This document shows, one piece after another, positions 6,376-63,076 of a DNA stretch of 64,000 nucleotides. The notes beneath the pieces are model-generated. The model saw nothing but the letters and a program-made list of their open reading frames with translations. It searched no databases and was not told the DNA's origin. The stretch's first letter is position 1, and each line of letters opens with the position of its first letter. This stretch comes from an uncultured Bdellovibrionales bacterium (GTDB lineage: Bacteria; Patescibacteriota; Minisyncoccia; Moranbacterales; UBA1568), in assembly GCA_964612055.1 (NCBI GenBank), contig CAZTBI010000001.1, positions 71,957 through 135,956 on the forward strand, written 5' to 3'. A program made the position numbers and the translations under genes.

Positions 6376-6380
6376 TCTGT

Positions 6381-6806: not shown

Positions 6807-6818
6807 AGAATTTTAGGT

Positions 6819-8544: not shown

Positions 8545-8571
8545 GAAGTACGGATTCGGAAGAACGTCAGA

Positions 8572-8605: not shown

Positions 8606-8608
8606 TCC

Positions 8609-9505: not shown

Positions 9506-9561
9506 CGCACTAGTATGTCATATTTCTCTTTTTTGGCAAAGAATTTATAAATTTCTGCATC

Positions 9562-9695: not shown

Positions 9696-9738
9696 GAAAG
9701 AAATTTGGCGTCTCAAGTGAGCTCCTTCGCTCTTTCAT

Positions 9739-22334: not shown

Positions 22335-22383
22335 TTTTTCTTGAGCTAAGGTATACTAGGAATACTATCATTATCTGCTTTCT

Positions 22384-22989: not shown

Positions 22990-23136
22990 GGGAAGTCGTG
23001 GTTTTGACAAAAATTGGAAAAAGAGTAAGATGGGAATGTTCCTAAAAGATGGTTTCAGACCCTCTTTTCTTTTTTCCGCCAGAGGGTGGATCCGCCTTGG
23101 GCGGAGGGTAGACTGATATGGTTGAATTTCTCTGCT

Positions 23137-23673: not shown

Positions 23674-23678
23674 TTCAT

Positions 23679-25742: not shown

Positions 25743-25751
25743 TTTTCGCTT

Positions 25752-26717: not shown

Positions 26718-26724
26718 CACGAGT

Positions 26725-27384: not shown

Positions 27385-27389
27385 ATTCT

Positions 27390-28844
27390 ATGCTGCTTAC
27401 CTTCCTCATTTCATTGCCACTCCTCGCTGCTTGTTTCATTGGCCTGCTTCAGTCAAAGCATGTCCGTGTGATTGAAAGAGCAGTGTTTGTTTCGAGTGTT
27501 CTCGAGCTTGGATTGATTCTGTCGCTCCTTCCGCAGGTAGTGACTCGGGGTTCAGTGGAGGCGTCGGCCCTTTTCTCGCTTGATCCGCTCGGAGCCTTCC
27601 TTTCTCTTCTCATTGCTTTGGTCGGTTTCTTTGCGAGTCTGTATTCAATCGGATACTTGCGTGCTGAAGTACAGAAAGAAATTATTGGGCTGCGGCGTGT
27701 TCGTCAGTATTTTCTTCTTCTCAAACTTTTCATGTTTGCCATGTTTTTGGCCGTAGCGACCATGAGTCCGATGGTCATGTGGATTGCTATCGAAGCAACG
27801 ACGCTTTCAACGGCATTCCTGATTAGTTTCTACAACAAGCAATCCGCGATAGAGGCCGCCTGGAAGTATCTTATTATCAACTCTCTTGGACTCCTCCTCA
27901 GTCTTTTGGGAACGCTCTTGTTTCTGGCGCTGCCAGAAGCACGCGAAAGTGCTTTTACCTGGGAAGCTCTTGCGGAAAATGCCGCCAATCTTTCTCCGCT
28001 TATCATCAAGATAGCCTTCATCTTCGTCTTGGTTGGGTATGGAACGAAGGTGGGCTTGGTACCGCTCCATACTTGGAAGCCGGATACGTACGCCAAGGCA
28101 CCGACACCGATTGCGGCACTGCTTTCGAGCGTACTCTTAAACGTTGCCTTTTTTGCAATCTTGCGCTTTAAGGGGGTGACGGATGCTGCTCTGGGTTCAA
28201 ATTTCGCTTCTGAGCTCCTCATTTTCTTTGGTATGCTCTCACTTGGTTTTGCTGCCCTCATCATTTTTGTACAGACGAATTACAAGCGCCTTCTCGCGTA
28301 CTCGAGCATTGAGCATGCTGGACTCTTGGCTCTGGGATTTGGTTTCGGAGGTGTTGGCGTGTTCGCTTCGCTTCTCCATATGCTCTACCATGCCTTGGGG
28401 AAAACACTTATCTTCTTTGCGGCAGGAAATATTTTCTTGAAGTATAGTTCGACCAAGATGCGTCATGTCACTGGCATGGTGAAGACCCTGCCGCTTTCTT
28501 CAATCGTCTTGTTCATAGCATTTATCGCCCTCTTAGGCCTGCCGCCTTTTGGTTTATTTATGACAGAGTTCCTGCTTCTTTCAGCGGGTATGGAGCAGTA
28601 CCCGTATCTGGTTATTGCCGCTCTCTTGTCATTGGCCGTTGTTTTCTTTGGATTCCTGAGACATCTCATGGGGATGTTCTTTGGTGAAGTGCCACAGGGC
28701 ATCGAATGTGGCGAGTCTAACAAGCTTACACAGCTTCCACTCCTTCTGGTTTTGGCCCTCCTTCTGGTTTTGAGCTGGTATTTACCTGAGACGTTGTCGG
28801 CGCTTATAGAGCTTGCAGCACGGGGTCTTTCGCTTCATTCTTAG
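27390..28844 (+). CDS. NuoN/NuoM/HyfF-like antiporter-type membrane subunit
   Basis: 484 aa with WIAIEATTLSTAFLISF...GYGTKVGLVPLHTWKPDTYAKAPTPIAALLSSV, motifs of the NuoM/N/HyfF family. Confidence 0.85.
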   Translation: MLLTFLISLPLLAACFIGLLQSKHVRVIERAVFVSSVLELGLILSLLPQVVTRGSVEASALFSLDPLGAFLSLLIALVGFFASLYSIGYLRAEVQKEIIGLRRVRQYFLLLKLFMFAMFLAVATMSPMVMWIAIEATTLSTAFLISFYNKQSAIEAAWKYLIINSLGLLLSLLGTLLFLALPEARESAFTWEALAENAANLSPLIIKIAFIFVLVGYGTKVGLVPLHTWKPDTYAKAPTPIAALLSSVLLNVAFFAILRFKGVTDAALGSNFASELLIFFGMLSLGFAALIIFVQTNYKRLLAYSSIEHAGLLALGFGFGGVGVFASLLHMLYHALGKTLIFFAAGNIFLKYSSTKMRHVTGMVKTLPLSSIVLFIAFIALLGLPPFGLFMTEFLLLSAGMEQYPYLVIAALLSLAVVFFGFLRHLMGMFFGEVPQGIECGESNKLTQLPLLLVLALLLVLSWYLPETLSALIELAARGLSLHS

Positions 28845-28856
28845 TATTTTTCTCTT

Positions 28857-30440
28857 ATGTCTGAACCAACACTTCTCGCCCGCTACGGACTTGCGACCTA
28901 CGTTCCAGAACAGGAAGGAAATCTTTTCTTGTTTCATGTCACCGAAAAAGATCTGGAGCTTGTCATAAAGACACTTAAGCATGATCATGCGCTCCCGTTA
29001 AAAACGGTCGCTGCTACTGATGAACGGAAAGAACGAGGGACATTTCGTATCCACTATATTTTCGGTGTACCAAAGGAAAACATTTTTATTGTTCCGTACA
29101 TTTCAGTCGATAAAAATGCCGAGACATTTCCGTCTTTGACTCCGATAGACCAAGAGTTTTCTCTGTACGAACAAGAAATCAAGACATTCTTTGGTCTTTC
29201 TCCAGAGGGTCACCCTCGTGCAACGCGCATCATTCTTCATGAGGAGAACTTTCCGAAGGATGTCTACCCATTGCGTAAGGACTTTGCCTGGGATACCAAG
29301 GTGACGCCACCAACGGAGAAGTTTGTTCCGACATTTCAAAAATACGAAGGTGAGGGAGTGTATGAGATTCCGGTCGGACCAGTGCATGCTGGCATTATTG
29401 AGCCGGGACATTTTCGATTCAGTGTTTTGGGCGAAGAGATTCTGCGTCTGGAGGCGCGCCTCGGGTATGTGCACAAGGGAACAGAAAAGCTTTTTGAGCA
29501 ATTACCACTGGAGAAAAAATTGACCCTTTCGGAGCGTATTTCCGGGGATAGCTCCTATCATCATGCCTTGGCCTTAGCTCAGGCAGTAGAGCGTCTCGCA
29601 TCTATAGAGGTACCAGCCCGTGGTCGTTTGCTCCGCGTGGTATACGCAGAACTCGAGCGCTTGGCAAATCATTTCAATGATCTCGCTTTTATCATGCTTG
29701 ATACGGGGTTTAGTTTTGGCGGCAGTCATGGTTCGCGTCTCCGTGAGCGTGTTATGCAGTGGAATGAGCGTCTCACAGGAAGTCGCTTTCTCCGGGGGGT
29801 TGTCACTTATGGTGGTGTGACTCGCGATATAAGTGGAGAGACCTTGCAAGCGTTGCATAATGATTTGGAATTGCTCGAAAAGGATTTCATGGAGGTGATC
29901 GCCGTGACCAAGGAAAGCGATTCCGTACAGAATCGTTTGAAGGGGACAGGGCGTTTGGATGCGACCGTGGCCAGAGATCTTGGGGCAGTAGGAATTGCCG
30001 CTCGGGCTTGCGGACAAGAAATCGATGCTCGGGCTGATTATCCGTACGCCGCCTATGATGTGGTGCAGTTTGGTATCATGACGGAGAAATCCGGCGATGT
30101 CTATGCCCGCTTCCGGGTCCGGGCTCGTGAGGTGACGCAGTCTTTCCGTCTTTTGAATCAGGTGTTGGCGCTTCTCGTGCACGAGTCTGGGGCGATTGCC
30201 TCGCCAGTGCACGCTCTTCCTGCCAATCGTCATGCGGTCTCTCTCGTCGAAGGGTGGCGTGGAGATATTGTGTATTTCGTCGCTACTGACAGTGACGGCG
30301 TGATCAGTCGAGTGAAGGTACGTGACCCATCGTTTTTGAACTGGACCCTCTTTCCGTACGTCATCGGTCAGGATATGGTGCCTGACTTCCCGCTCATTAA
30401 TAAGAGCTTCAACCTTTCCTATACAGGAAACGATCTCTAG
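28857..30440 (+). CDS. fused NuoC-NuoD / HyfG(HycE)-like large subunit lacking Ni-Fe ligand cysteines
   Basis: The N-terminal roughly 150 aa is NuoC-like. The remainder is NuoD/HycE-like (YEIPVGPVHAGIIEPGHFRF, ERISGDSSYHH, ...VRDPSFLNW). Both CxxC Ni-Fe motifs (RxCGxC and DPCxxC) are replaced (SGDS, DPSFLN). Confidence 0.8.
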   Translation: MSEPTLLARYGLATYVPEQEGNLFLFHVTEKDLELVIKTLKHDHALPLKTVAATDERKERGTFRIHYIFGVPKENIFIVPYISVDKNAETFPSLTPIDQEFSLYEQEIKTFFGLSPEGHPRATRIILHEENFPKDVYPLRKDFAWDTKVTPPTEKFVPTFQKYEGEGVYEIPVGPVHAGIIEPGHFRFSVLGEEILRLEARLGYVHKGTEKLFEQLPLEKKLTLSERISGDSSYHHALALAQAVERLASIEVPARGRLLRVVYAELERLANHFNDLAFIMLDTGFSFGGSHGSRLRERVMQWNERLTGSRFLRGVVTYGGVTRDISGETLQALHNDLELLEKDFMEVIAVTKESDSVQNRLKGTGRLDATVARDLGAVGIAARACGQEIDARADYPYAAYDVVQFGIMTEKSGDVYARFRVRAREVTQSFRLLNQVLALLVHESGAIASPVHALPANRHAVSLVEGWRGDIVYFVATDSDGVISRVKVRDPSFLNWTLFPYVIGQDMVPDFPLINKSFNLSYTGNDL

Positions 30441-39680: not shown

Positions 39681-40283
39681 CTATTTCTTGAAAACGAAGA
39701 ATTTGTAGCCGATGAAGTTCCAGGTGAGTACCAGGATAGAGGCCGTGAGGCCACCGATATTGGCCCAGGTCTTGTCGGCCATCCCGGCTGGAGCGCTGAT
39801 GACGTTTACCACGAAAGCGGTGATGCCAACGTTTAAGAGAAGTCCAACGAGACTGACCATGAGGAATTGAGTAAATTCTTCTCCGACGTTATGAACCTCT
39901 TTTTTCTCAAAGGACCAGAATTTATTCCAAACATAACTATTGACGATGGCAGCTAGGACGGAGAATGACTTGAAAACAACGATGAGATAACCGCTCGAGA
40001 CATCACTCAGATAGATAAAGAGATTGTAGATACCGAGGTCGACAACGGTATTGGCCACACCGATCAAGCCGAATTTCGCCAACTGGAAAAAGAACGAGCG
40101 GATTTTTGAGAGGAGATAGCCAGCGGCAATGCCAAGAGCCGAGAGCGTTGCTAAGAGAGGGACAAAGATGACAATAGGAACAGGAAGTTTCAGGGCAAGA
40201 TTGCTAAAAATGAATGGTGCCAAGATTCCAATAAAAGCACCATTGATAGCGCCAAATATAATATCGCGAGAAGAGAGGCGCAT
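39681..40283 (-). CDS. GtrA-family membrane protein (extended, ~200 aa)
   Basis: The C-terminal 130 aa has the GtrA signature (FGLIGVANTVVDLGIYNLF...W). There is an N-terminal extra TM hairpin. Confidence 0.6.
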   Translation of the reverse strand: MRLSSRDIIFGAINGAFIGILAPFIFSNLALKLPVPIVIFVPLLATLSALGIAAGYLLSKIRSFFFQLAKFGLIGVANTVVDLGIYNLFIYLSDVSSGYLIVVFKSFSVLAAIVNSYVWNKFWSFEKKEVHNVGEEFTQFLMVSLVGLLLNVGITAFVVNVISAPAGMADKTWANIGGLTASILVLTWNFIGYKFFVFKK

Positions 40284-40286: not shown

Positions 40287-41066
40287 CTACTTCTGATTGT
40301 TGATTTCTTTTTCAATTTCTTCCATATCTCGCACCCAAGCATCAAGGGGGGAAGTGCTGATAGGCACCTCCTCAACATGAGGAGTAGGAGGGGGAGTGAT
40401 ATCTTTCAAATCCTTCCTCCAATTATTGATGACGCTATTTTGATCTGTAGCCTTGGCCATTTCACCCTGCCAGTCTTTGCTCGTGCCTTTCTGGATGACG
40501 TTTTCTATAGCAGCCCAGGAACTATCGATATCACGAGGAAGGACGACGGCTACCTCATCTCCAGGAGTGGCTTTGAAGTAGGTGATAGACGCCAAAAGTA
40601 CTCGGTGCGGTTTGCCATTGGCTAAGACGTAGTAATTGCCAGATTCGTCCTGGGTAACGATACCAAGGGCGTGACGACGCTCGATGGGGCCAATCTGTTT
40701 ATAAAGAAAAGTGCCAGTGTCAGTGATAGTGAGCTTGAGCATGTCGCCTTCAACCAATTTAGACTTGGAAGCGTAGTTGGCGGGAACAGGGTATTGCTTG
40801 CCATCGGTGCCAATCATAATCTGACCGTCAAAGGTTCCTTCGACGATAGTACCGCCGTTTTCGTCGACATCTACTTTTCGTGGTCGGCCAGACTTCTTCT
40901 TTCCTTCCAGCTGCAAAAGCATCGCCTTGGCGCTTTGGATGGTTTTTTCGGCGTTTCCTACCATATCGCGGAGCGCCTGGATTTTCATGGCTTGTTCAGC
41001 CTCGCCCGTTGTTTCCTCTTCGGGAGGAGTAATATGCTTGACCATAATTTTTTGTGTTTCGCGCAT
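40287..41066 (-). CDS. hypothetical protein
   Basis: 259-aa charged protein. No family recognised. Confidence 0.45.
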   Translation of the reverse strand: MRETQKIMVKHITPPEEETTGEAEQAMKIQALRDMVGNAEKTIQSAKAMLLQLEGKKKSGRPRKVDVDENGGTIVEGTFDGQIMIGTDGKQYPVPANYASKSKLVEGDMLKLTITDTGTFLYKQIGPIERRHALGIVTQDESGNYYVLANGKPHRVLLASITYFKATPGDEVAVVLPRDIDSSWAAIENVIQKGTSKDWQGEMAKATDQNSVINNWRKDLKDITPPPTPHVEEVPISTSPLDAWVRDMEEIEKEINNQK

Positions 41067-41225: not shown

Positions 41226-41255
41226 TTGACAAAATATAGGAATATGCGCTAATAT
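41226..41255 (+). promoter_or_regulatory. sigma70-type promoter (TTGACA-18-TAATAT)
   Basis: Consensus -35 and strong -10, about 70 nt upstream of the 41324 ORF. Confidence 0.55.
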
Positions 41256-41323: not shown

Positions 41324-42385
41324 ATGACCACCCCCAAAGGAACCCCATCTCTCGATCCTCTCGACGCATCAAAGGTGCTTTTTTCGTCGACCCTCCAGAC
41401 CCTTTTGGAGCACCTGCCACCACGTTCCCGGAGCATTGTCGAGGAGCGTTTTGGTGTCGGTACTGGTACTCCAAAGACTCTCGAGGAAATCGGGAAGTCA
41501 TATCAGATTACTCGCGAGCGCGTGCGTCAGGTCATCGGGAGTGCTCTAGGATTTCTTTCTCATGAAAAGGGTCATCCTTCGATTGGCCAAGTCGTTGATT
41601 CTATACAGAAAGCTTTGAACGAAAAGCATGGCGTCATGAAGGCTGATGAATTACTTGAAAAACTTTCTTCTCAGAGCAAGAAGGAGCGCGGAGCGTTGCT
41701 CGCTTTTCTCGAAGCCCTGTCAGTTGTCAAAGAAGAGAAGGCAACAAAGGAATATGAAAAACTGTATCGTTTGAAAGATTTTTCACTCAGTCATTTGCAT
41801 GAGGTAAAGGAATTGGCCAAGAAAGTTCTCATCGAAGCGAAGGATGCTCTCGATGCGACCGAGTTTTATGCTCGTTTCAAAAAACTGCGTCCGGAACTTA
41901 CCAAGCAGGAACTTTTCAATCTTCTTTCCGTATCGAAAGAAATAAAGCAGAACGTTTTCGGGAAGTGGGGACTGGCGAGTTGGAGTGATATCCGACCTCG
42001 AGGAACCCGTGAAAAGGCCTACTTGGTTTTGAAAACTGCCGAGAAGCCACTGCACTTCCGTGATATTGCAAAATTGATTGATAGTTACGGTCTCCAAAAG
42101 AGAAACCGCAGTCATCCTCAGACGGTGCACAATGAGCTCATCAAAGATAAGGGCTTCGTCTTAGTCGGGCGCGGTATCTATGCGTTGTCTGAATGGGGCT
42201 ACAAGCGTGGAACCGTGAAGGATGTCATTGCTGATATTCTGAAAGTTTCCGGAAAGGCCCTTTCTCGAGAAGAAGTATTGGTGGAAGTACTGAAAGTGCG
42301 CCAAGTGAAAAAATCAACAGTCGTGATCAACTTGAATACATTCTTTGCGCGGACGGGAAAGAACGCGTATACTATCAAGCAGTAA
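41324..42385 (+). CDS. sigma-70 region-4-like HTH domain protein (CPR-type, N-terminal r4 helix-turn-helix)
   Basis: RSIVEERFGVGTGTPKTLEEIGKSYQITRERVRQV resembles sigma-70 region 4.2. The remaining roughly 270 aa are unassigned. Confidence 0.55.
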   Translation: MTTPKGTPSLDPLDASKVLFSSTLQTLLEHLPPRSRSIVEERFGVGTGTPKTLEEIGKSYQITRERVRQVIGSALGFLSHEKGHPSIGQVVDSIQKALNEKHGVMKADELLEKLSSQSKKERGALLAFLEALSVVKEEKATKEYEKLYRLKDFSLSHLHEVKELAKKVLIEAKDALDATEFYARFKKLRPELTKQELFNLLSVSKEIKQNVFGKWGLASWSDIRPRGTREKAYLVLKTAEKPLHFRDIAKLIDSYGLQKRNRSHPQTVHNELIKDKGFVLVGRGIYALSEWGYKRGTVKDVIADILKVSGKALSREEVLVEVLKVRQVKKSTVVINLNTFFARTGKNAYTIKQ

Positions 42386-42404
42386 GGCTTGTTATGTGTG
42401 ACGA

Positions 42405-42552
42405 GGGTCAACCCCGCACTATTTTGGCGCTAAGAATTTTTTAAAAAAAGTCAGACACGAAAGTGTTCTGACATGGTCCATCGATATAACCACTCTTTTG
42501 GTTTCAGAATGCCTTCGGCATTTGCGCCAAGAGAGTGCGGGGTCAACGCACC
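42405..42552 (+). promoter_or_regulatory. structured 5' leader: ~150-nt long-range inverted repeat enclosing two hairpins (one UUCG-capped)
   Basis: Arms gaccccgcact..ttggcgc (42408..42430) and gcgccaa..agtgcggggtc (42524..42546). Internal hairpins gtcagacacgaaagtgttctgac and aatgcc-TTCG-ggcatt. The element ends 10 nt before the ATG at 42562. Confidence 0.45.
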
Positions 42553-42561
42553 TCTTTTGCC

Positions 42562-43866
42562 ATGAGTACTCTTTTTTCCAATATAACTGAAGCGTTTTCT
42601 CTTATGGGAAGCGTTTTTTCCGTTGTCATGAGTGTGTGGTTTATTCTTTTTCCACCACTTTTGTATTTCTTGTTCAAGCTCCTCTGGATGTTTCATGTTT
42701 GGGGGCACTATGGGAGTAAAATTCAGTGGGTGCTCCTTGAGATCGTGCCGCCACGAGATATTGAGAAGAGTCCGGCCCTGATGGAGTCTATCTTTTCTGG
42801 CTTCGCTGGTGTCATGAAGTCACCGAGTGCCATGGAGGAACTGATCAAAGGGGAGTACCCGACATCATTTTCTTTGGAGATAGCGAGCAACGAAGGACAG
42901 GTGCACTTTTATGTACGTACTCAAGCTGGTTTTCGTAACCTCGTAGAAGCTCATTTTTACGCTCAGTATCCTGGCATCGAATTGGTAGAGGTAGAGGATT
43001 ATGTCAATTTGGTGCCGAAGACGATTCCGAATAAAGATTGGGATTTGTGGGGGACGGATTTCGTTTTCGTGAAACCGGACCTTTATCCGATCAAGACCTA
43101 TCGTTTTTTTGAAGAAACCGTGACCGGGAAGATGATTGATCCTTTGGCCGGACTCATTGAAACCATGGCCAAGACCGGTCCAAAGCAGTACATCTGGCTA
43201 CAGTTCATCATCACTCCCTATAGTGAGAAATGGTATGCCACTGGCCAGGGGACAATTGATGAATTTTTAGGCAAGGTGAAAGAAGAAAAGCAGGGCATGA
43301 TCAGCCGAATTTTTTGGGATATTTTAGACGTTTTTGCCAATCTGGGCCGTGGTCTCCTGGGTCAGGAAGTTATTTTTTCTGGCAGTGAAGAAGCTGCCAA
43401 GAAGGAGGAGCAACCATTGGAGTTTCGCTTGTCGCCGGGTCAGAAAAAGGTGTTGGAAGCGCTCGAGAACAATCTCGGGAAGCAGATGTTCAAGACGCGT
43501 ATGCGCCATGTCTACGTCGGTCGAAGAGAAGCGTTCAATAAACCAACTGGAGTTTCTTCTTTTATTGGGGCCATCAAACAGTTCAATGACTTCAACTTAA
43601 ATAGCGTGAAGCCAGATGATAACTCAAAGACGTACGCCAGTTATATTTTTGCTGAAGAGCGTTTGCGTTACCGTCAGCGGCGTTTGTTTCGTCGCTATGC
43701 GACTCGTGATTCTGATCCGCAGAGCTCTCGTTTTATGTTGAGTAGCGAAGAGTTAGCTACTGTTTTCCATATTCCAGATATGGCAGTTATGGCACCGACA
43801 CTGACTCGTGTGGCAGCACGTCGTGGCGGCGCTCCGATGAACCTCCCTATCCAAGAAACCGAATAA
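42562..43866 (+). CDS. membrane-anchored hypothetical protein (N-terminal TM hairpin + ~380-aa soluble domain), partner of downstream ATPase
   Basis: Two N-terminal TM helices (VFSVVMSVWFILFPPLLYFLFKLLWMF). There is a 4-nt gap to the next gene. No recognised family. Confidence 0.55.
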   Translation: MSTLFSNITEAFSLMGSVFSVVMSVWFILFPPLLYFLFKLLWMFHVWGHYGSKIQWVLLEIVPPRDIEKSPALMESIFSGFAGVMKSPSAMEELIKGEYPTSFSLEIASNEGQVHFYVRTQAGFRNLVEAHFYAQYPGIELVEVEDYVNLVPKTIPNKDWDLWGTDFVFVKPDLYPIKTYRFFEETVTGKMIDPLAGLIETMAKTGPKQYIWLQFIITPYSEKWYATGQGTIDEFLGKVKEEKQGMISRIFWDILDVFANLGRGLLGQEVIFSGSEEAAKKEEQPLEFRLSPGQKKVLEALENNLGKQMFKTRMRHVYVGRREAFNKPTGVSSFIGAIKQFNDFNLNSVKPDDNSKTYASYIFAEERLRYRQRRLFRRYATRDSDPQSSRFMLSSEELATVFHIPDMAVMAPTLTRVAARRGGAPMNLPIQETE

Positions 43867-43870
43867 TACT

Positions 43871-46048
43871 ATGCTTGATCAGAACGAAATTACTTTTTTT
43901 GCCAAGACGAACTTCCGCAATCAGGAGCGGGTTTTTGGTATCAAAACAGATGATCGACGCCGTCACATGTATGTGATCGGAAAGACGGGTATGGGAAAAA
44001 CCAACCTCTTGGAAAACCTAGCTATCCAGGATATTCAAAAAGGTCACGGTATTGCCTTTATCGATCCGCACGGTGATACGGCAGAAAAACTGATCAAAGC
44101 CATTCCGAGCAACCGTATCAATGATGTTATTTATTTCAACCCGGCTGATCAGGATTTTCCTATCGCGTTCAATGTGATGGAGAAGGTTGATCCAGAGTAT
44201 CGCCACCTTGTCGCTTCCGGTTTGGTCGGCGTGTTCAAAAAAATCTGGGCGGACTCCTGGGGACCACGTCTCGAATATATCTTGCGCAATGCTATTTTGG
44301 GACTGCTGGAATATCCGGGCAGTACGCTTCTCGGGGTGACGCGTATTTTGGTGGACAAATCTTATCGTGAACGCGTGGTAGAAAAAATCACCGACCCGGT
44401 GGTGCGTTCTTTCTGGGTGGATGAATTCTCAAAGTGGGATCCCCGCGTGCTTCAGGAGGTGATCTCGCCGATCCAGAACAAGGTGGGGCAGTTTCTTTCG
44501 AGCGCCCTTATCAGAAATATCGTTGGTCAGACAGTATCATCTTTCGATGTGCGCAAGATCATGGATGAACGCAAGATCCTCATCATGAACCTTTCCAAAG
44601 GTCGCCTCGGTGAAGATAATAGCGCCCTTCTGGGAGCCATGATGATTACCAAGATACAGCTCGCCGCTATGGGTCGGGTGGACATTCCTGAAGAGACCCG
44701 CGCTGACTTTTATCTCTACGTTGATGAATTCCAGAACTTTGCCACGGAGTCGTTTGCGAATATCCTTTCTGAAGCTCGTAAGTATCACTTGAACCTCATC
44801 CTGGCTAATCAGTACGTGACCCAGATTGATGAAGAGGTGCGTGATGCTATTTTCGGAAACGCAGGCTCTATCATCTCATTTCGAGTGGGCGCTATGGACG
44901 CCGAATTTTTGGAAAAGGAATTCGAGCCGGTTTTTATGATGAATGATATCGTCAATTTGGCGAAGTATCAGATTTACCTCAAGCTCATGATTGATGGTAT
45001 CGCGGGAGATGCTTTCAGTGCTACGACGCTGCCACCAATCAAACTTGAGACCGCTGCTAATGAGCAGAAGATTATTGATGCTTCTCGAGAACGTTATACG
45101 ACGAAGAAAGAAGAGGTAGAGGAGAAAATTCGTCGTTGGAGCGGCATGTTGTCAGCCGAAGAGCGTCAAGCCCTCGTTCAGCCAAGAAGCCCTGCTCCGA
45201 TTCCGGCAGCTCGACCAAAGGAACCTGTCAGGTCTCAAGCTCCCGCTCCGGCGCGTTCACAATCCGTGCCAGCTGCTCCGAGGGTAGAGCGGTCCGGAGA
45301 AGGTCGTTACGCCGCTCCCAAGGCCCCTGTCGCTCCTTCTATTCCGAAAGCTCCAGCCCCGGTAGTGTCTAAAGTTGCACCAGTCCAGAAGGAGGGGGCG
45401 TATTCTCCGAAACAAGCATCAGCCGTCTTGCAATCTGCTCTGACGCAGAAGCAAGCTCCAACTCCCGTCGCTCCGAAGCCAGATTTTGTGCCGCCCATGG
45501 CACCGAAGAAGGAACCGATGATTTCACTCGATGAATTTGAAAAGGAAGAGGAGAGGAGTCAGCTTCGGCTAGAAGAAAAAGAAGAGCCAGGGGATCAGGG
45601 AATAGTAGGGGGTGTCGAAACAGAAGCTTTGGCAGAGGTGCCGGAGAAGAAGCTCTACCAAGCACAGTGCGCCACCTGCGGCACTGATATTGAGGTGCCT
45701 TTTGAGCCAGATGGGAGTAGGCCAACTTTCTGCAAGGACTGTCTGCGTGATTATCAACGAGCGACCGCCAAGGCCCGCAATGAGATAGAGAAAAACCAAG
45801 CCACGAGAGCGGCGATGGGAAATGGAGGGGGCATGCCGCGGCAGAATGCTCCAGAACGGCGCGATATTCCTCGAGACCGCGTGGTTTCTCACCAATCCTA
45901 TGCTTCATCTGAACGGCCGCTTTCTTTGGCTCAGGTGCAACATATTGAACCCAAGAAATTCAAGGCCTTGAGAAAGCGACCAGAACTCAATCTCTCTGAG
46001 GTGCGAGCACTGATTGATGATACTCGAAGAACTCAAGGGGGCGCGTAG
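43871..46048 (+). CDS. VirD4/TraG/TraD-like (T4 coupling protein family) P-loop ATPase with Pro/Ala-rich linker and C-terminal CxxC...CxxC zinc ribbon
   Basis: Walker A VIGKTGMGKTNLL followed by the T4CP-typical IAFIDPHGD. Walker B is FYLYVDEFQNF. The C-terminus has QCATCGTDIEVPFEPDGSRPTFCKDCL. Confidence 0.55.
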   Translation: MLDQNEITFFAKTNFRNQERVFGIKTDDRRRHMYVIGKTGMGKTNLLENLAIQDIQKGHGIAFIDPHGDTAEKLIKAIPSNRINDVIYFNPADQDFPIAFNVMEKVDPEYRHLVASGLVGVFKKIWADSWGPRLEYILRNAILGLLEYPGSTLLGVTRILVDKSYRERVVEKITDPVVRSFWVDEFSKWDPRVLQEVISPIQNKVGQFLSSALIRNIVGQTVSSFDVRKIMDERKILIMNLSKGRLGEDNSALLGAMMITKIQLAAMGRVDIPEETRADFYLYVDEFQNFATESFANILSEARKYHLNLILANQYVTQIDEEVRDAIFGNAGSIISFRVGAMDAEFLEKEFEPVFMMNDIVNLAKYQIYLKLMIDGIAGDAFSATTLPPIKLETAANEQKIIDASRERYTTKKEEVEEKIRRWSGMLSAEERQALVQPRSPAPIPAARPKEPVRSQAPAPARSQSVPAAPRVERSGEGRYAAPKAPVAPSIPKAPAPVVSKVAPVQKEGAYSPKQASAVLQSALTQKQAPTPVAPKPDFVPPMAPKKEPMISLDEFEKEEERSQLRLEEKEEPGDQGIVGGVETEALAEVPEKKLYQAQCATCGTDIEVPFEPDGSRPTFCKDCLRDYQRATAKARNEIEKNQATRAAMGNGGGMPRQNAPERRDIPRDRVVSHQSYASSERPLSLAQVQHIEPKKFKALRKRPELNLSEVRALIDDTRRTQGGA

Positions 46049-47685: not shown

Positions 47686-47744
47686 GAGTAGCTAAAAATA
47701 GAGTCACCTTGAGGGCTTATACTCATCCTTATCTTTTTCTTATG

Positions 47745-48977
47745 GAAAATACCTCTTTCAACGAACAGGGCAACACTGTCATCGAGCAGCCTCTTCCTCC
47801 AAAAAGTTATAGCAAAGGAAAACTCGTTGTTTTTTTGATTCTCGCTCTCTTGTGTGGATTCGCTGGTGGCATGATCGCGCCAGCGCTCCAAGAGCGCTTT
47901 GCTCAGTATCTGCCTGAAATACTTCGGCCGATGAATTCGGTACTGGAAAAAAATACAGTGGTTCTTTCTGAGGAAAGCGCCGTAGCTGATTTGGTAGAAA
48001 AAAATTCTCCGGGGGTGGTCAGTATTGTTATTAGTAAAGATGTTCCCAAGGTGCGGAGCTTTTTTGGATTTCCGTTTTTTGATTCGGAAACTGGCAATGC
48101 GGAAACGAAAAAGCAGAAAGTGGGGAGTGGTTCCGGATTCTTTGTTTCATCGGATGGTTTGATTGTGACAAATAAACACGTGGTTGCTGATGAGGAAGCT
48201 GATTACACGGTTCTTCTGGGAAACGGGGATGAGTATAAGGCGACTGTCTTGGCGCGGGATCCGAGTAATGATATCGCGGTCATTCAAATTGAGGGCAAGG
48301 ATTTCCCTGTTTTGACACTGGGTGATTCCGAAAAGATTCGCGTGGGAGAAACCATCATCGCTATCGGTAATCCTCTGGGTGAGTTTGAAAACTCGGTCAG
48401 TCGAGGGATTGTCTCTGGTCTCCGTCGAAACCTCGATGCTGGTTCGGGTCTCGGTGATTCCGAACATCTTTCAGAGATTATCCAGATTGATGCCGCTATC
48501 AATCCTGGGAATTCCGGTGGGCCACTTTTCAATCTGGCGGGCGAAGTTATTGGCGTGAACGTTGCTATGGCTCAAGGAGCCGAAAATATCGGCTTTTCGC
48601 TCCCGATTAATCAGATCAAGCGCATCGTAGAACAAGTGCGTACCACGGGGAGACTTTCTTTCCCGTATCTGGGAGTGCGTTCTATTACCTTGGATGATGA
48701 ATTGAAGAAAAAGACTGGCCTCCCATTCAATTATGGGGCACTAGTGCTGCGTGGACAAACGGTGACGGATTTTGCTGTTGTGCCAGGCTCGCCAGCAGAC
48801 AAGGCTGGCATTGTCGAAAATGATATCATCCTTGAAATTGATGGCAAAAAAGTAGATACTGATCATAGCCTTGTCTCCTTCATGGCGCAGTATTCGGTTG
48901 GGGATGAAGTGACGGTAAAACTCTGGCACAAGGGAGAAGTGAAGGATGTGACCGTGAAGCTCGAAGAACGCCAGTAG
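47745..48977 (+). CDS. HtrA/DegP-family serine protease with PDZ domain
   Basis: Catalytic triad motifs are present (TNKHVV, DIAVIQ, GNSGGPLFN), followed by a C-terminal PDZ. Confidence 0.88.
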   Translation, partial: ENTSFNEQGNTVIEQPLPPKSYSKGKLVVFLILALLCGFAGGMIAPALQERFAQYLPEILRPMNSVLEKNTVVLSEESAVADLVEKNSPGVVSIVISKDVPKVRSFFGFPFFDSETGNAETKKQKVGSGSGFFVSSDGLIVTNKHVVADEEADYTVLLGNGDEYKATVLARDPSNDIAVIQIEGKDFPVLTLGDSEKIRVGETIIAIGNPLGEFENSVSRGIVSGLRRNLDAGSGLGDSEHLSEIIQIDAAINPGNSGGPLFNLAGEVIGVNVAMAQGAENIGFSLPINQIKRIVEQVRTTGRLSFPYLGVRSITLDDELKKKTGLPFNYGALVLRGQTVTDFAVVPGSPADKAGIVENDIILEIDGKKVDTDHSLVSFMAQYSVGDEVTVKLWHKGEVKDVTVKLEERQ

Positions 48978-49016: not shown

Positions 49017-49772
49017 ATGATTTTTCACCTTACTGTTTTTGTCTGGAGCTTAGCCTTTCTTGCTGGCCTTGAGGCGGTAGCACTCAATCCCATCTTTGCC
49101 TCTTGGAGTTGGTATCTTCTTTCTATTGGCGTGCTGGTCGCGATATCGCTCGGTGCCATTCGTCGTTTGACGGAGAATTCTTCAGATGCCTTTATTCCGA
49201 TTCTGCTTTCTCTCGCTTCGCCGACGCTCCTCTCGCTCGTCGATCATCCTGGTGAGCGGCAAGTGTTTGTTTTCCTAAGTGCGGTGATGTATTATTTCGC
49301 GCTCCTCGGGAACTACCGTCTCCACCATGCTCCTGCTGACAAAACGGGTGAGGCCTTTCTGAACTCAGCTGCGATGGCGGCCATGTTCTTCTTTTATGCC
49401 GGTCTGTACGGATTTTTTCTCAACTTCTCCTTTCCACTTTGGGGATTGATGCTTCTGTACTTTATTGGTACGGCACTGACCAGTTACGAGACGTTTATTA
49501 CCGTCGACAAGAAAGAACGCAAAAGAGTGATTCTCTACAGTGCGCTTCTCGGCTTTATCATGGGCGAGATGGTGCTCGTGATGAGTCTTTGGCCATTTGG
49601 GTACCTGACAACAGGGGCTCTCGGGACGATTCTTTTTTTCATCGCGTGGGATATTTCCTTTGATGCTTTTCGAGAGACGTTGTCATTGAAAAAGGCGATG
49701 ATTCGCATCCTATTTCTCATGATACTCGTCCTCCTTCTCCTTATCAGTTCTCCGTGGCGGATATTGGTGTAG
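49017..49772 (+). CDS. hypothetical polytopic membrane protein
   Basis: 251 aa with 6-7 predicted TM helices. No family recognised. Confidence 0.5.
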   Translation: MIFHLTVFVWSLAFLAGLEAVALNPIFASWSWYLLSIGVLVAISLGAIRRLTENSSDAFIPILLSLASPTLLSLVDHPGERQVFVFLSAVMYYFALLGNYRLHHAPADKTGEAFLNSAAMAAMFFFYAGLYGFFLNFSFPLWGLMLLYFIGTALTSYETFITVDKKERKRVILYSALLGFIMGEMVLVMSLWPFGYLTTGALGTILFFIAWDISFDAFRETLSLKKAMIRILFLMILVLLLLISSPWRILV

Positions 49773-49892
49773 AGCGTATTCTTGTTGTTCGTGACGGTTT
49801 TGCGATAGAGTTTCTTGGGAGTGAAAAATTACATACTTTTGGGGAGTTGTTTCCCAAAAATACCTTCCCTTTTCTTTTTAAGGAATTCCTAA

Positions 49893-50037
49893 ACCAAGCA
49901 ACCTCCCAAAGTACCGCTTGCTTGCCCCGGCGTGGCAAGCTGCTCTACGCTTCCACCCGCACTCTTTTTCTTCTGCCAGCTGGCAGAAGAAAAAACCATG
50001 CCCGTGCGGGCTCCAGAGTTACTTTGGAAGATTCTTG
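49893..50037 (+). repeat. structured intergenic repeat R1, copy 2
   Basis: Near-identical to 9562..9695 except that the P3 hairpin is extended (tttttcttctgcc-agc-tggcagaagaaaaa versus tttttcc-TTCG-ggaaaaa), with stem-preserving changes. Confidence 0.6.
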
Positions 50038-50091
50038 TTTAGGGATTCTCGGTATGCGCAGCGTTTTCGAAAATATTTTCATTTTCTTCAG

Positions 50092-50203
50092 CCGTGTCCT
50101 GTCGGTCACATTTGTCATGAGTGTACCGGTAACAGTCGAGCGTAATGAGTGGCTTCCGTCAGATAGCTCCCTGTTCGGCGAAGCGATTGAGAAATGTTCG
50201 ATA
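50092..50203 (+). repeat. intergenic repeat R2, copy 1
   Basis: About 112 nt. About 85% identical to the reverse complement of 59381..59497, with a shared core gtcggtNacatttgtNatgagtgNaccggtaacagtcgagcgtaa...agctccctgttcggc...gaaatgttcga. Confidence 0.55.
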
Positions 50204-50314
50204 GGACTAAAGGGGGAGAAAAGGGAACATATTTTTGAAAACGTACATACCATTTTTTGTTCAGAGGCATTTCTTGCCGAAAATGGTGAAATATGATAGA
50301 AGTAAAGCACTGTT

Positions 50315-51499
50315 ATGGCATCATTTTTCATCAAAAAAGCCCTTCTTTTCAGTTTTTTAGCCATCATCGTGCTCATCTTGGGCGGGGTGGGGGGTGTTTT
50401 TTTTGAGCGTTCACTGGTGCCGCGTTTGGCTGCTACAGAATACTTTGGGAACTGGGATATCTTCAAGAAAGCCGCAGAGCACGTGACGGTCATCAACAAG
50501 ACTGAGCAGATCGTGATCCGTGAAGATGATACCGTTGAAAGAATCGTTTCTCAGCCAGCAACGGCAGTGGTGAATATCGTGGCTTTGCCTGGGGTAAAGG
50601 GTGCGAAGGGGAGTACGGCCGCTTTGGGCGCAGCCGCAGAGACGGTCGTGACGACTACGGGTGTGCTGCTGACGAATGACGGTCTGGTAGCGACCTACAG
50701 CGAGCTTCCTTTTGATACTGAAAAGACAGAGTATTCCATCTTGCTTTACGATGGCTCGATCCACCAAGCGACGTTTGCTGGTCGAGACAAGTTGACGAAT
50801 CTTTCATTTTTCCGAGTGAGCGATGCTTCCAATACGCCGGCCATTGCTTTTGCAAATTCCGATGACGCACGCGTAGGAAGAAAGCTGATTGCGATCGGGA
50901 ATACATTTGCGGAATATCAGAATCGTTTGGCCGTAGGTATCCTTTCCAATATCAATCGCATCTTCAATCTTTCTGGAAAAACGGTTGCTTCCTCAGAAAA
51001 GTGGGAAGGAGTCTTTGAGATGGATCTGGCTAGACCAGAATCGTTCGTCGGTGGTCCGGTGATCGGTTTCAATGGGGAGATGGTTGGTATCGTAGGAACA
51101 CTCGCCATCAACAATACACTCCAGTCGTTTGTCATTCCATCGAATGTGGTGCGCGATGCTCTTAATCGTCTGATCGCTGGGACATTGGAGAGGCGGCCGA
51201 TTCTTGGTGCGTACTATCTCTCGATTACGAAAGCTTTGGCACTGGGTCAAGGTCTCGCTCGTGATCGTGGGGCGCTTGTCTATTCGCGCTCTGGTTCCAC
51301 TGGTCTTGCCCTGATCGCTGATTCACCGGCCATGAAGGCTGGGATTCTGGCAGGGGATATTATTATCTCGGTAAACGGTACCGAAGTGAATCTCGACAAT
51401 CCGCTCCCAGAGATACTGTCACGCTTCAATGTTGGCGACACGCTTTCTCTGGTCATTCTCCGCAACAATGAGGAGCGGACCATCGAAGTGAAACTGTAA
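50315..51499 (+). CDS. HtrA-like pseudo-protease with PDZ domain (catalytic His and Ser substituted)
   Basis: Trypsin-fold/PDZ architecture aligns with the neighbouring HtrA. The His motif reads TNDGLV and the Ser motif reads ESFVGGPV (no GNSGGP). Confidence 0.7.
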   Translation: MASFFIKKALLFSFLAIIVLILGGVGGVFFERSLVPRLAATEYFGNWDIFKKAAEHVTVINKTEQIVIREDDTVERIVSQPATAVVNIVALPGVKGAKGSTAALGAAAETVVTTTGVLLTNDGLVATYSELPFDTEKTEYSILLYDGSIHQATFAGRDKLTNLSFFRVSDASNTPAIAFANSDDARVGRKLIAIGNTFAEYQNRLAVGILSNINRIFNLSGKTVASSEKWEGVFEMDLARPESFVGGPVIGFNGEMVGIVGTLAINNTLQSFVIPSNVVRDALNRLIAGTLERRPILGAYYLSITKALALGQGLARDRGALVYSRSGSTGLALIADSPAMKAGILAGDIIISVNGTEVNLDNPLPEILSRFNVGDTLSLVILRNNEERTIEVKL

Positions 51500-51705: not shown

Positions 51706-53034
51706 ATGGCACCACTGCCAGTTGATAAGATCCCGACTCATACCGGGTTCCATTTCGATGAGGTCCTGGGGATTTTCCAGATGTGGAATTATCCGCAGCA
51801 TTCCGAACCGCTTTTCCCTGGCATCAGCAACGCCAGTGTGGTTTTCTGGAATGCCGGCCGCAAGACGCCGGATGGCTACTACGCTGACGAAGGCTGGATC
51901 CGGAAGAATCGGATGTGTCCTGTCGGTTGTGGCGGCAGCATCTTTGACGAGCACCCCAAAGAAGAAGAGTCTGAGGAAGAGGAGCGCCTTCGTCCACAGA
52001 CCTGCGCGGCCCTGTTGGTTGCTCAGAAGCTCGGCATCGATCAGTTGCCACGGCTCCAGTCCTGCCTCCGATTCGCGGTGGAAGTCGATAACAATGCGAC
52101 GGATCATCCGCACAGCATTGCTGCGACCATCAAGAAGCTCCACAACAACCGTGAGACGACGCCGGGTCATGTCAGGAAGTGGGTGAAGGATCCGGAACAG
52201 GCAAAGAGGATCAAAGAACTCCTCCAGCGTCGGATCTCGATCGGTGATGTGTTCGAATGGGTGCAGCAAGGGATCTACGCCAAGATGTGCGAACAACCCC
52301 AGACCGACGACTTCACGATCGAAAAGATCGGTGAACTCATGCAGCTGCAAGGCATGCATGAACCGTTTTCGGCTGAGGACTGGTTGCGCATCGGCACTGA
52401 TGCGATGGAGCTCGATCAGTTGCTTTTTGACACGGTGACGGCTGAGCAGTACCAGGCGTTCAAGACCATTGTTCCTTTCCGAGGAATCGGCAGAGGGAGC
52501 AAGGTCATGGACATGAAGATCGCCGTAGTTCCGTCGGATGATGTGCGCATCGATCGTTACGCCCGATCAAAGTTGGGCGATCAAGTAGCGGTCACCGTCA
52601 TCAAAAGGTCGACTGGCAACATCGTCGTCATGGTGAACAAGTATTACGGTCTCCGTACCTATGACATCGCTCGGGCGATCAAGACGGAAGAATGTCTCAT
52701 GAGAGGCATCGAACTTCCGCGCTGGGATCAGATGAGGCGGCAGCTTCAGCACAGTGTGTGGTACTACCATGCGCCGGGCGGCAACCTCTTTAATGGGGCC
52801 AAGACCTCGCCGGATACGCCGCCGACCGTAATCCCGCTGCCGAGGATTGTCCAGTTGGTGAAGATGGCAGTTTCGTCTGAGGCGTTCGAATCGTCTCGGA
52901 GCGAATGCTGCCTGCAGGGGATCTGCAGTTCGACTCCACGGCAACCCTGTTCGTGGTACAAGTACGGCCTGTCCCGTTGTCAGACAATCCGCTTTGAAGC
53001 ACGACGTGACGCGGAGGCCGAGCTGAATAAGTAG
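51706..53034 (+). CDS. hypothetical protein (442 aa) encoded in a GC-rich island; possible horizontally acquired gene
   Basis: It is the only ORF spanning the whole island. It has a strong SD (AAGGAG 7 nt upstream) and its own promoter and terminator. GC is visibly higher than flanking DNA, with many spurious all-frame ORFs. No family recognised. Confidence 0.55.
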   Translation: MAPLPVDKIPTHTGFHFDEVLGIFQMWNYPQHSEPLFPGISNASVVFWNAGRKTPDGYYADEGWIRKNRMCPVGCGGSIFDEHPKEEESEEEERLRPQTCAALLVAQKLGIDQLPRLQSCLRFAVEVDNNATDHPHSIAATIKKLHNNRETTPGHVRKWVKDPEQAKRIKELLQRRISIGDVFEWVQQGIYAKMCEQPQTDDFTIEKIGELMQLQGMHEPFSAEDWLRIGTDAMELDQLLFDTVTAEQYQAFKTIVPFRGIGRGSKVMDMKIAVVPSDDVRIDRYARSKLGDQVAVTVIKRSTGNIVVMVNKYYGLRTYDIARAIKTEECLMRGIELPRWDQMRRQLQHSVWYYHAPGGNLFNGAKTSPDTPPTVIPLPRIVQLVKMAVSSEAFESSRSECCLQGICSSTPRQPCSWYKYGLSRCQTIRFEARRDAEAELNK

Positions 53035-59567: not shown

Positions 59568-60014
59568 TTATTTTTCCTTTTCGAAAAATATGTTCCAGAA
59601 AAGGTAGCCGGCGAGAAAGAAGCCGGCGATGAAGACAGGAATGAGGAGTGGGGGAAATTTGATGAGTGAGACTGAGAGGATGCCAACTGCCCAGAAGATA
59701 CCGAGCCACAGAAGGGGGCTCTTTTTTGTGATGTTCCAGGAAAATGAAAGATTGAGGTAGCGCCCGAGGAGGGCGGTGGCGAAAGTGGAGAGCGTGAGGA
59801 TGAGCAAGAACTTGGCGAGGCTGAAACGTGTGGTTACGAACGTTGGGAGGAGTGTTTCAATGGTGAAGAAGCCGGCAAAATAGAGGTAGCCGATGATAAG
59901 AGCTTCAACAGCGAGGGCATAGACGATATGGAGCGCTCCAGATGTGCGCCACTTTTCGAGAGAAGGGGTGAGTTGCTTGAATAAGAAATCCATAAGAGTG
60001 TTTTTAGGCGTCAC
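59568..60014 (-). CDS. hypothetical small polytopic membrane protein
   Basis: 148 aa with 4 TM helices. Overlaps the upstream gene by 11 nt. Confidence 0.5.
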   Translation of the reverse strand: MTPKNTLMDFLFKQLTPSLEKWRTSGALHIVYALAVEALIIGYLYFAGFFTIETLLPTFVTTRFSLAKFLLILTLSTFATALLGRYLNLSFSWNITKKSPLLWLGIFWAVGILSVSLIKFPPLLIPVFIAGFFLAGYLFWNIFFEKEK

Positions 60015-62952: not shown

Positions 62953-63076
62953 ATCGCTTTTAGTATACCTCAAAAGGGGCATGTCTTTCAATTCTTTTCC
63001 TGTTTGCCAATGGCCGGTTGAGAGGTTACAATACAGAGAAAAGAATAGGCAGGTCTGTTTTTGTCTCGACCCACTC

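Follow-up and report, generated by a model that had tools for sequence, protein, structure and literature searches.

A 64,000-nucleotide stretch of the Moranbacterales contig CAZTBI010000001.1 (assembly GCA_964612055.1, positions 71,957 to 135,956; the whole stretch is called the window here) contains three consecutive genes that form a block vertically conserved across the Candidate Phyla Radiation (CPR), or Patescibacteria, in housekeeping surroundings. The first encodes a sigma factor-like protein; the other two, at 42562-43866 and 43871-46048, encode a membrane protein and an ATPase that align as the two halves of one type IV coupling protein (T4CP) of the monoderm/archaeal "long" type. 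That protein appears to be a single polypeptide on Bacillus, Embleya and haloarchaeal plasmids, and appears fused in Saccharibacteria as well. We think it somewhat probable that the two halves constitute a membrane-anchored, two-subunit T4CP-type translocase, likely acting on nucleic acid, and that a small hairpin at the start of the membrane gene is an operator or processing signal. The features of the block are as follows.

41226..41255, + strand: promoter-like site TTGACA-18-TAATAT ahead of the sigma-like gene (consensus match only)
41324..42385, + strand: gene 1, 353 aa, sigma-70 region 4 and HARE-HTH domains
42562..43866, + strand: gene 2, 434-aa membrane subunit, PF26449, ATG start (alternative GTG at 42535)
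42592-42699, + strand: hydrophobic helical hairpin of the membrane subunit, residues 11-46
43732-43863, + strand: conserved, low-confidence C-terminal tail SSEELATVFHIPD...NLPI of the membrane subunit
43871..46048, + strand: gene 3, 725-aa T4CP-type ATPase, starting 4 nt after gene 2
43979-44002, + strand: Walker A GKTGMGKT, residues 37-44
44060-44077, + strand: IDPHGD, residues 64-69
44723-44734, + strand: Walker B DEFQ, residues 285-288
45164-45646, + strand: Pro/Ala-rich linker of 161 aa (17% Pro, 16% Ala), residues 432-592
45668-45742, + strand: CxxC-x17-CxxC zinc ribbon, residues 600-624 (PF23477 2.9e-11, TIGR04272 3.6e-12)
45743-46045, + strand: conserved basic C-terminal tail of the ATPase

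The split coupling protein

The Walker A context and DEFQ Walker B by which a sequence-only reading of this DNA had recognised a T4CP-like ATPase are present in gene 3 at residues 37-44, 64-69 and 285-288. At the curated Pfam cut-offs the protein matches TrwB_AAD_bind (30.5 bits, cut-off 20.5), TraG-D_C (24.2, cut-off 22) and DUF87 (25.1, cut-off 23.2), the last only over residues 30-72, and it matches neither FtsK_SpoIIIE nor AAA_10. Apart from FtsK_SpoIIIE these are the families that reading had proposed to search, and placement in HerA or FtsK, which it had named as an outcome that would overturn it, is not what the models give. The TraD and VirD4-like models of NCBIfam match the Walker A region. 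In a sequence comparison with solved structures, TrwB (6e-7) and DotL (1.5e-5) match the single sequence best, and both are at about 2.4e-7 with a profile of 36 diverse CPR sequences; HerA structures give weak partial matches (E 0.004-0.1), and neither FtsK nor VirB4 is among the matches of the single sequence or the profile. An AlphaFold2 model of the ATPase core, made from an alignment of rows 82-93% identical, reached a pLDDT (predicted local distance difference test score) of only 47 and was left out of the fold search; it is helical at about residues 102-232, and the Pfam match covers positions 11-288 of a Pfam model of 387 positions. By its sequence matches the ATPase is a relative of the VirD4/TrwB/TraD-type T4CPs and is neither an FtsK nor a VirB4.

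The ATPase has no hydrophobic segment (its top 19-residue Kyte-Doolittle mean is 1.27), in agreement with the earlier statement that it lacks an N-terminal transmembrane domain. Since the hydrophobic hairpin lies at residues 11-46 of the protein encoded just upstream, the anchor would be supplied in trans, as that reading had also supposed. Behind the motor, the zinc ribbon and Pro/Ala-rich linker that it described are both there, the linker being 161 aa long and not about 200. The ribbon is found in 103 of 116 complete ATPase open reading frames (ORFs) from related loci, and linker length across loci ranges from 10 to 203 aa, so that of the window is at the long extreme.

The membrane subunit had been called a 2-TM (two-transmembrane-segment) protein lying 4 nt upstream. 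The gap is indeed 4 nt, and "2-TM" is approximate: there is one hydrophobic stretch of about 35 residues (11-46), interrupted by a conserved Pro-Pro and modelled by AlphaFold2 as a helical hairpin. The model of the whole protein has a pLDDT of 72 and a pTM (predicted template modelling score) of 0.68, and in a Foldseek search its ten best matches are all chains of TrwK, the VirB4 protein of plasmid R388, with essentially nothing else. RecA-type ATPase domains (TrwB, FtsK, HerA or a lone VirB4 C-terminal domain) are absent from these matches and the protein has no P-loop, so the matched part is probably the VirB4 N-terminal domain; by structure, then, the membrane subunit appears to carry a VirB4-type N-terminal domain, and hhalign finds no sequence similarity to the N-terminal domain of a plasmid VirB4. 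The family assignment PF26449 comes from precomputed tags, present as PF26449.1 on all 240 relatives listed (among them P0001, which is 100% identical); a local copy of Pfam returned no match. The family comprises 3,277 clusters at 50% identity (E <= 1e-3), of which the best 150 are all stand-alone proteins of 336-608 aa. We found no mention of PF26449 or DUF8128 in the literature.

A tblastn search of plasmids with the ATPase core gave 779 records, many of them non-mobilizable plasmids; the same search with the membrane protein gave nothing, and its link to plasmid T4CPs is by hhalign only. On a 27.5-kb Bacillus subtilis plasmid (NZ_CP154917) the ATPase core matches about residues 346-746 of an 885-aa "DUF87 domain-containing protein", whose gene lies directly 5' of a Replic_Relax-family relaxase gene in a cluster that also holds VirB4 (AAA_10, E 8e-116). 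An 812-aa Embleya protein is encoded between PrgI/VirB4-like genes and genes for a relaxase and an NlpC/P60 protein, the gene of a 913-aa Bacillus protein (NZ_OX419581) adjoins relaxase and TcpD/TcpE genes, and a 1193-aa haloarchaeal (Haladaptatus) protein is a further relative of the same kind. In hhalign comparisons the ATPase profile aligns with the 885-aa protein at 99.9% probability (E 1.6e-32, residues 28-432 against 344-774) and the membrane-protein profile aligns with the part preceding it at 97.5% (E 5.3e-12, residues 89-420 against 41-305). The membrane-protein profile also matches the 913-aa Bacillus protein (95%, E 3.9e-8), which is 33% identical to the 885-aa protein in the region aligned to the membrane subunit. 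Its alignments to the N-terminal regions of the Embleya (E 0.003, 10% probability) and Haladaptatus (E 0.03) proteins are collinear and not significant, and are suggestive only. Bacillus plasmid VirB4, used as the VirB4 reference in place of R388 TrwK/TrwB, aligns with the ATPase at 2.5% probability and in the Walker A region only.

The 40 residues of the 885-aa protein left unaligned between the two matches correspond to the last 14 residues of the membrane subunit and the first 29 of the ATPase. This collinear alignment of both halves to one fused protein indicates that the two genes arose by fission of the gene for a long monoderm-type T4CP. The membrane partner, which had been taken for a novel substitute for the missing transmembrane domain, is instead the detached N-terminal domain of such a protein. 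A split monoderm-type T4CP agrees with the published derivation of the CPR type IV secretion system (T4SS) from the mating-pair-formation class FATA (MPF-FATA; Quinonero-Coronel et al. 2025, PMC12102498).

With T4CPs in general (VirD4, TrwB, TraD, DotL) the window pair shares the P-loop core models, the Walker A...IDPxGD...Walker B layout and membrane anchoring. It differs in that its anchor and N-terminal domain are on a separate polypeptide where T4CPs carry the N-terminal anchor in cis, in that the ATPase ends in a zinc ribbon where T4CP tails are acidic or TraM-binding, and in that its genes are chromosomal, vertically inherited and very highly conserved, with no adjacent T4SS or relaxase gene. 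The long T4CP-position proteins of Bacillus, Embleya and Haladaptatus share the collinear homology and an EELAxxxxxP motif before Walker A, but they are single polypeptides encoded beside Replic_Relax relaxases and VirB4/TcpD/TcpE/PrgI, with acidic tails and no zinc ribbon; unlike the window membrane subunit, the Bacillus protein has no N-terminal hydrophobic hairpin in the annotated ORF. The membrane half differs from VirB4/TrwK in being paired with a T4CP-type motor and in lacking sequence similarity to the VirB4 N-terminal domain, and its gene, unlike those of the stand-alone TrsD homologues of CPR, does not adjoin virB4. FtsK/SpoIIIE belongs to the same ATPase superfamily and likewise combines a membrane anchor, a Pro-rich linker and a nucleic-acid-binding end module, but the window ATPase has neither an FtsK_SpoIIIE match nor a gamma domain, and its linker follows the motor. 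HerA differs in that the DUF87 match is limited to residues 30-72 and no nuclease (NurA-type) neighbour is found in the related loci.

We note that an isolated 395-aa ATPase encoded on the Sulfitobacter mediterraneus plasmid NZ_CP081110 (L161:6983-8170) is 41% identical to the CPR core (E 6e-97), far closer than the other non-CPR matches. It lies beside transposases and has no gene for the N-terminal half, and it may have been acquired by horizontal transfer from a CPR-like source.

Conservation of the block and its probable Southlakia counterpart

Relatives of the membrane gene were collected by a scan of one genome per species, in which at least 583 species genomes contain it, and by a metagenome scan that added 80 loci; the sample examined for context is 160 CPR loci with the membrane gene, and the core identities and ftsB neighbourhood refer to the first 80. 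The ATPase gene lies directly 3' of the membrane gene in 151 of the 160 loci, always as an ORF of its own, with a median gap of 19 nt, and the sigma-like gene lies directly 5' in 147. The pair is thus kept as neighbours elsewhere, as the sequence-only reading had asked, but its "orphan two-gene module" is really part of a conserved three-gene block. Two informative loci, L056 and L072, have no ATPase gene after the membrane gene; in the former (3800-9796) the ORFs that follow are, as we take them by eye, NusA, trigger factor, ClpP and IF-2, and in both the ATPase gene may be elsewhere in the genome or lost. Neither the membrane gene nor the ATPase gene has a second copy in the window or the related loci. 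Identity in the first 80 loci is 58-96% for the ATPase core, which we judge unusually high for a T4CP, and 32-73% for the membrane half.

The window surroundings of the block encode DnaX, a GtrA-like protein, FtsB/DivIC, a PpiC-type foldase, HtrA, DnaE and an SMC_N-domain protein; the ftsB neighbourhood is limited to close relatives (about 12 of the first 80 loci). In other loci the genes that recur around the trio encode, judged by eye, presumably SecD/F, phosphoglycerate kinase (Pgk), MnmA, AlaRS, MltG, RecJ and MetK. The site at 41226..41255 is the sole promoter-like site ahead of the block, and none was found when the spacer 42386-42561 between the sigma-like and membrane genes was inspected, which would fit co-transcription of the three genes. 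On the 5' side of the block a 259-aa protein with no Pfam match (40287-41066, - strand) and the GtrA-like gene (39681-40283) keep their position and orientation in Moranbacteria-level relatives, with 54-84% identity. Many of the TPA_asm records of metagenome-assembled genomes with a Moranbacteria-type block (L002, L003, L005, L009 and others) are titled Bdellovibrionales, Gammaproteobacteria or Saccharibacteria; these titles look unreliable and were not used as evidence. In the protein databases the best matches come from Moranbacteria metagenome-assembled genomes and are 99-100% identical.

The sigma-like protein has a sigma-70 region 4 at residues 27-75 (Pfam, 3.6e-13) and a HARE-HTH domain at 230-291 (2.2e-9), and in a profile search of solved structures its N-terminus matches region 4 of RpoD/SigA at about E 1e-18. 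The idea that it is a hidden Replic_Relax-related relaxase was rejected, as no similarity was found.

The same block appears to be present in Southlakia epibionticum, with the T4CP in fused form and, judging from the published insertion analysis, dispensable in co-culture. There SEML1_0294 (349 aa, Sigma70_r4 at 27-72 and HARE-HTH at 225-283) is essential in all three analyses, and directly 3' of it SEML1_0293 encodes a 921-aa protein whose P-loop domain covers 361-795 and whose TrwB_AAD_bind match covers 402-719; it is non-essential, with many insertions (Wang et al. 2023, PMC10633639 supplement). Architecture and synteny are the grounds on which we infer orthology: in both organisms the order is Sigma70_r4 plus HARE-HTH, then a TrwB-type ATPase, the N-terminal region of which is about 360-400 aa long in Southlakia. 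They differ in that the Southlakia T4CP is fused, whereas that of the window is split into two genes. Since SEML1_0294 is essential beside a dispensable T4CP homologue, the sigma-like gene would have a function of its own, which we presume to be in transcription. The Southlakia T4SS cluster has no recognisable coupling protein (PMC10633639). A second T4CP-like Southlakia gene, the essential SEML1_0142, encodes a 1019-aa "TraM recognition domain-containing protein" whose P-loop domain is most like FtsK 2IUT (PMC10633639 supplement); it has no counterpart in the window.

A recent survey found 5,713 VirD4-type T4CP homologues in 2,918 of 3,035 CPR genomes, only 148 of them near virB4, with the CPR VirB4 clade in 2,407 assemblies, and its authors wrote that exaptation of these homologues "cannot be ruled out" (Quinonero-Coronel et al. 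2025, PMC12102498). The existence of a second gene of the SEML1_0142 kind explains the roughly two homologues per genome. With homologues so widespread and a fused counterpart on record in Southlakia, the pair is not wholly undescribed, as the earlier phrase "not described as such" had implied.

The leader and its basal hairpin

The spacer ahead of the membrane gene contains a structured region with the following parts.

42400..42554, + strand: structured spacer, minimum free energy -65.6 kcal/mol, z = -5.0
42400-42433 and 42521-42554, + strand: inverted-repeat arms
42405..42412, + strand: 5' copy of GGGTCAAC, a direct repeat of the basal-hairpin start, flanking the expansion
42412-42429 and 42525-42542, + strand: arms of the long-range helix
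42450-42472 and 42507-42523, + strand: inner hairpins, GAAA-capped and UUCG-capped respectively, not conserved
42539..42554, + strand: conserved basal hairpin GGGGT-CAACGC-ACCTC, 5-bp stem and CAACGN hexaloop, ending 7 nt before the ATG

None of 200 shuffles folds as well as 42400-42554, and the element of about 150 nt with two inner hairpins, one UUCG-capped, that the first reading had described is present, except that it ends 7 and not 10 nt before the ATG. The Rfam search which that reading had recommended gave no family: 42300-42700 gives nothing beyond noise up to an E of 10, and across the window only a tRNA reaches the gathering score. The long helix occurs only in the window and in L001, L005, L007 and L084, and is absent from the equally close relatives L002, L003, L004 and L006. 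All five long-helix loci have the 5' copy of GGGTCAAC followed by 13-18 nt that pair just 5' of the basal hairpin. The arms diverge between loci yet are complementary at 14-18 of 18 positions (ungapped counts; MAFFT shifted the arm register), and the arm pairs of the window and L005, and of L001 and L084, are recognisably homologous, with differences that keep the pairing.

The part that is conserved is the basal hairpin. A CAACGN hairpin is present at the syntenic site in 34 distinct loci, ending 0-15 nt before the start codon, with stems that include GGGGU/ACCYC, AAGGU/ACCUU, CUUUG/CAAAG and CGCG/CGCG. All five stem pairs vary on both sides, and the covariation is 1.07 against 0.24 when shuffled, in a set pre-selected for at least four of five pairs. 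When pairing is left out of the selection, CAACG lies within 95 nt of the start in 48 of 158 loci, where chance would give an estimated 0.1 or so per locus; a perfect hairpin is at the site in 36 of 158 loci and occurs 9 times elsewhere (both strands, 1.26 Mb). The 64-kb window has exactly one CAACGN hairpin. In four loci with no hairpin before the membrane gene there is one between the membrane and ATPase genes (L008:6652, L022:7406, L026:7372, L094:3336): it overlaps the ATPase ATG in L022 and L026, ends 21 nt before the ATPase start in L094, and in L008 lies 316 nt 5' of the extrapolated ATPase start, inside a 376-nt gap. To judge from these alignments the conserved unit of the leader is the 16-nt hairpin and not the 150-nt structure; the proposed translational riboregulator is not conserved as a whole, and such a role is plausible for the basal hairpin.

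A Shine-Dalgarno-like motif lies within 20 nt of the start in only about 6 of 41 likely gene starts in the window, and the organism appears to rely largely on Shine-Dalgarno-independent initiation. With such sites this rare, hiding one is not how the hairpin would act, and a Shine-Dalgarno trap was rejected; a terminator was rejected for want of a consistent U-tract. On these two grounds we read the hairpin as a candidate translational operator or processing signal. An oriT-like DNA hairpin was judged unlikely: the element tracks the start codon of either gene, is found in one lineage, and has G-U over A-C pairs (10 against 2, a count biased by the locus selection rule). With known translational operators (MS2 coat-protein, T4 RegA, ribosomal-protein) it shares the form of a small stem-loop at the start codon with an invariant loop and a covarying stem; it differs in having no Rfam family, in its Moranbacteria-level distribution and in being known from sequence alone.

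Two origins are conceivable for the long helix: the hairpin may have expanded under selection, for instance into an RNase III site or a switch between alternative conformers, or an old palindrome may have been inserted with duplication of its target. The GGGTCAAC repeat looks like a target-site duplication, or else like one half of an internal loop. It is a real possibility, though one that we rather doubt, that the 150-nt element is a selfish insertion like a miniature inverted-repeat transposable element, with an 8-9-bp target duplication (GGGTCAAC) and no regulatory role of its own. Its patchy presence among equally close relatives, the inverted arms flanked by direct repeats, the unconserved interior and the lack of an Rfam family would all fit this. 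Such an insertion would, however, have to be at the same point in five species with diverged arms and have no second copy in the window or in 1.3 Mb of related loci, and the changes on both sides of the homologous arm pairs that keep the pairing argue for selection on the long helix.

Proposed role of the motor and other features of the window

We propose that the two halves come together as an oligomeric ATPase anchored in the membrane. The membrane subunit would anchor the motor to the membrane and position it there, probably through its conserved C-terminal tail, in place of the inter-domain linker of the fused proteins; the motor would oligomerise like other T4CPs and use ATP to pass its substrate on to a channel in the membrane. 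Nucleic acid is the most likely substrate, because the closest relatives adjoin relaxases, the tail is a zinc ribbon, and the ATPase resembles mad8, a component of a DNA-directed defence system. The most economical channel would be the MPF-FATA-type T4SS of Patescibacteria, the genes of which lie elsewhere in the genome. The CAACGN hairpin would act as an RNA operator or processing signal at the start of the membrane gene (in some lineages, of the ATPase gene) and set expression of the T4CP genes apart from that of the essential upstream gene; the 150-nt helix would be a lineage-specific expansion of it.

The VirB4-like N-terminal domain and the conjugative relatives favour docking to a T4SS. 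Several observations weigh against this proposal. VirB4, VirB6 and relaxase genes, which the first reading had likewise not found nearby, are absent from the window ORFs scanned, and the genes that recur around the block in the 160 loci include no T4SS or relaxase gene. The distribution of T4CP homologues is wider than that of CPR VirB4 (2,918 against 2,407), so that either part of the family is independent of T4SSs or assemblies are incomplete. The Southlakia T4SS is essential (PMC10633639) while the fused T4CP homologue is dispensable, so the homologue is not required for the essential function of that T4SS. Wider distribution, separate location and non-essentiality together favour independence from the T4SS. 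On the structural side, the VirB4-like N-terminal domain is a likeness of a moderate model (pLDDT 72) with no sequence signal, and the all-alpha domain typical of T4CPs is unconfirmed in the ATPase, the model of which has a pLDDT of 47. For the hairpin, the pre-selection behind the covariation figure counts here, as does its occurrence in 48 of the 78 loci at least 43% identical and in none of the 80 more distant, that is, at the Moranbacteria level only.

An alternative is that the pair is an exapted split T4CP that works independently of a T4SS, alone or with another channel, as a DNA uptake or exchange motor (compare ComFA, Ced and Streptomyces TraB) or as a chromosome pump of the FtsK kind; DNA would be recognised by the zinc ribbon together with the HARE-HTH/sigma-4 protein. 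We consider this unlikely, if far from negligible. It would accord with the survey figures (96% of CPR genomes have T4CP homologues and about 80% the CPR VirB4 clade, and only 148 of the 5,713 homologues lie near virB4), with the suggestion of exaptation by the survey authors (PMC12102498), and with the dispensable Southlakia homologue beside an essential T4SS. It would also suit the 58-96% core identity, the housekeeping context (beside ftsB/divIC in Moranbacteria) and a layout reminiscent of FtsK, with an anchor, a motor, a long Pro-rich linker and, at the C-terminus, a nucleic-acid-binding module. Against it, where the context of relatives is informative, the closest of them occupy the T4CP position in T4SS conjugation clusters, and the VirB4-like N-terminal domain would suggest docking to an inner-membrane platform of T4SS type. 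The ftsB neighbourhood, too, is limited to close relatives. The FtsK-like version is further weakened in that transcriptome work on TM7x mentions FtsK, so CPR are not generally without one; an essential FtsK-like role was rejected, being contradicted by the non-essential Southlakia homologue.

Because the membrane half matches only VirB4/TrwK among solved structures, because the order of N-terminal domain and then P-loop is that of VirB4, and because TrsD, a stand-alone protein like the VirB4 N-terminal domain, is common in CPR T4SS loci, the pair might be a diverged, split VirB4 paralogue, a second assembly ATPase that energises T4SS or pilus biogenesis. This is highly improbable: the ATPase has no AAA_10 or VirB4 model match, its best solved-structure sequence matches are TrwB and DotL, its hhalign probability is 2.5% to the plasmid VirB4 against 99.9% to the T4CP-position protein of the same plasmid, and the membrane half has no sequence similarity to the VirB4 N-terminal domain. 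We give hardly any credence to an anti-phage ATPase related to mad8 of the methylation-associated defence system (MADS). PADLOC does match residues 9-374 of the ATPase to mad8 (E 5.2e-17), and the many relatives on non-mobilizable plasmids could be read the same way, but the block has no methyltransferase, nuclease or other defence gene beside it in the window or the 160 loci, for which reason membership in a defence system was rejected. Defence islands are moreover patchy, whereas the block is near-universal, vertically conserved and subject to strong purifying selection, and the only defence-system match of its membrane and sigma-like proteins is that of sigma region 4 to MzaA.

The "minimal DNA/protein translocation or uptake device" of the first reading may be right in the sense of an autonomous device. 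A bolder and quite unlikely version is a module for nucleic-acid translocation, vertically inherited throughout the CPR, that has become independent of conjugation machinery. In it the essential sigma-4/HARE-HTH protein would tag DNA (or RNA) or bring it in, and the motor, held by the VirB4-like subunit, would recognise its cargo through the zinc ribbon and pump it across or towards the envelope, with one of the block proteins feeding back on motor synthesis through the CAACGN hairpin as operator. Such a module could serve acquisition of DNA or nucleotides from the host cell, or delivery to it.

The two-subunit translocase that we prefer bears on the exchange of macromolecules with hosts by the CPR, which are host-dependent and a large share of bacterial diversity. 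The 2025 survey (PMC12102498) left open the role of the near-universal CPR T4CP homologues, and this locus adds a testable anatomy: a long monoderm T4CP split into two subunits, a detached half that resembles the VirB4 N-terminal domain, a conserved zinc-ribbon tail, synteny with a sigma-4/HARE-HTH protein that is essential in the one tractable species, and a start-codon hairpin in one lineage. This anatomy would also connect the T4CP and VirB4 lineages of T4SS ATPases by structure.

Elsewhere in the window, 20244-30440 holds a series of genes for membrane energetics, which one would not expect in a CPR genome. It includes a Na+/H+ exchanger (20244-22334), two Proton_antipo_M (Mrp/NuoL-like) genes (23679-25742 and 27390-28844) and a gene for a fused Complex1_30kDa and 49kDa (NuoC/D-like) protein (28857-30440), and it may be an Mrp-antiporter or group-4 hydrogenase-like module. 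The ORFs at 61165-63078 (- strand, 637 aa), 60004-61155 (- strand, 383 aa) and 51706-53034 (+ strand, 442 aa) have no Pfam match at the thresholds used. Two HtrA-like trypsin/PDZ paralogues, 47709-48977 and 50315-51499, are 27% identical and lie 1.3 kb apart, separated by a gene for a DUF5656 protein (49017-49772) and an ORF at 49754-50296.

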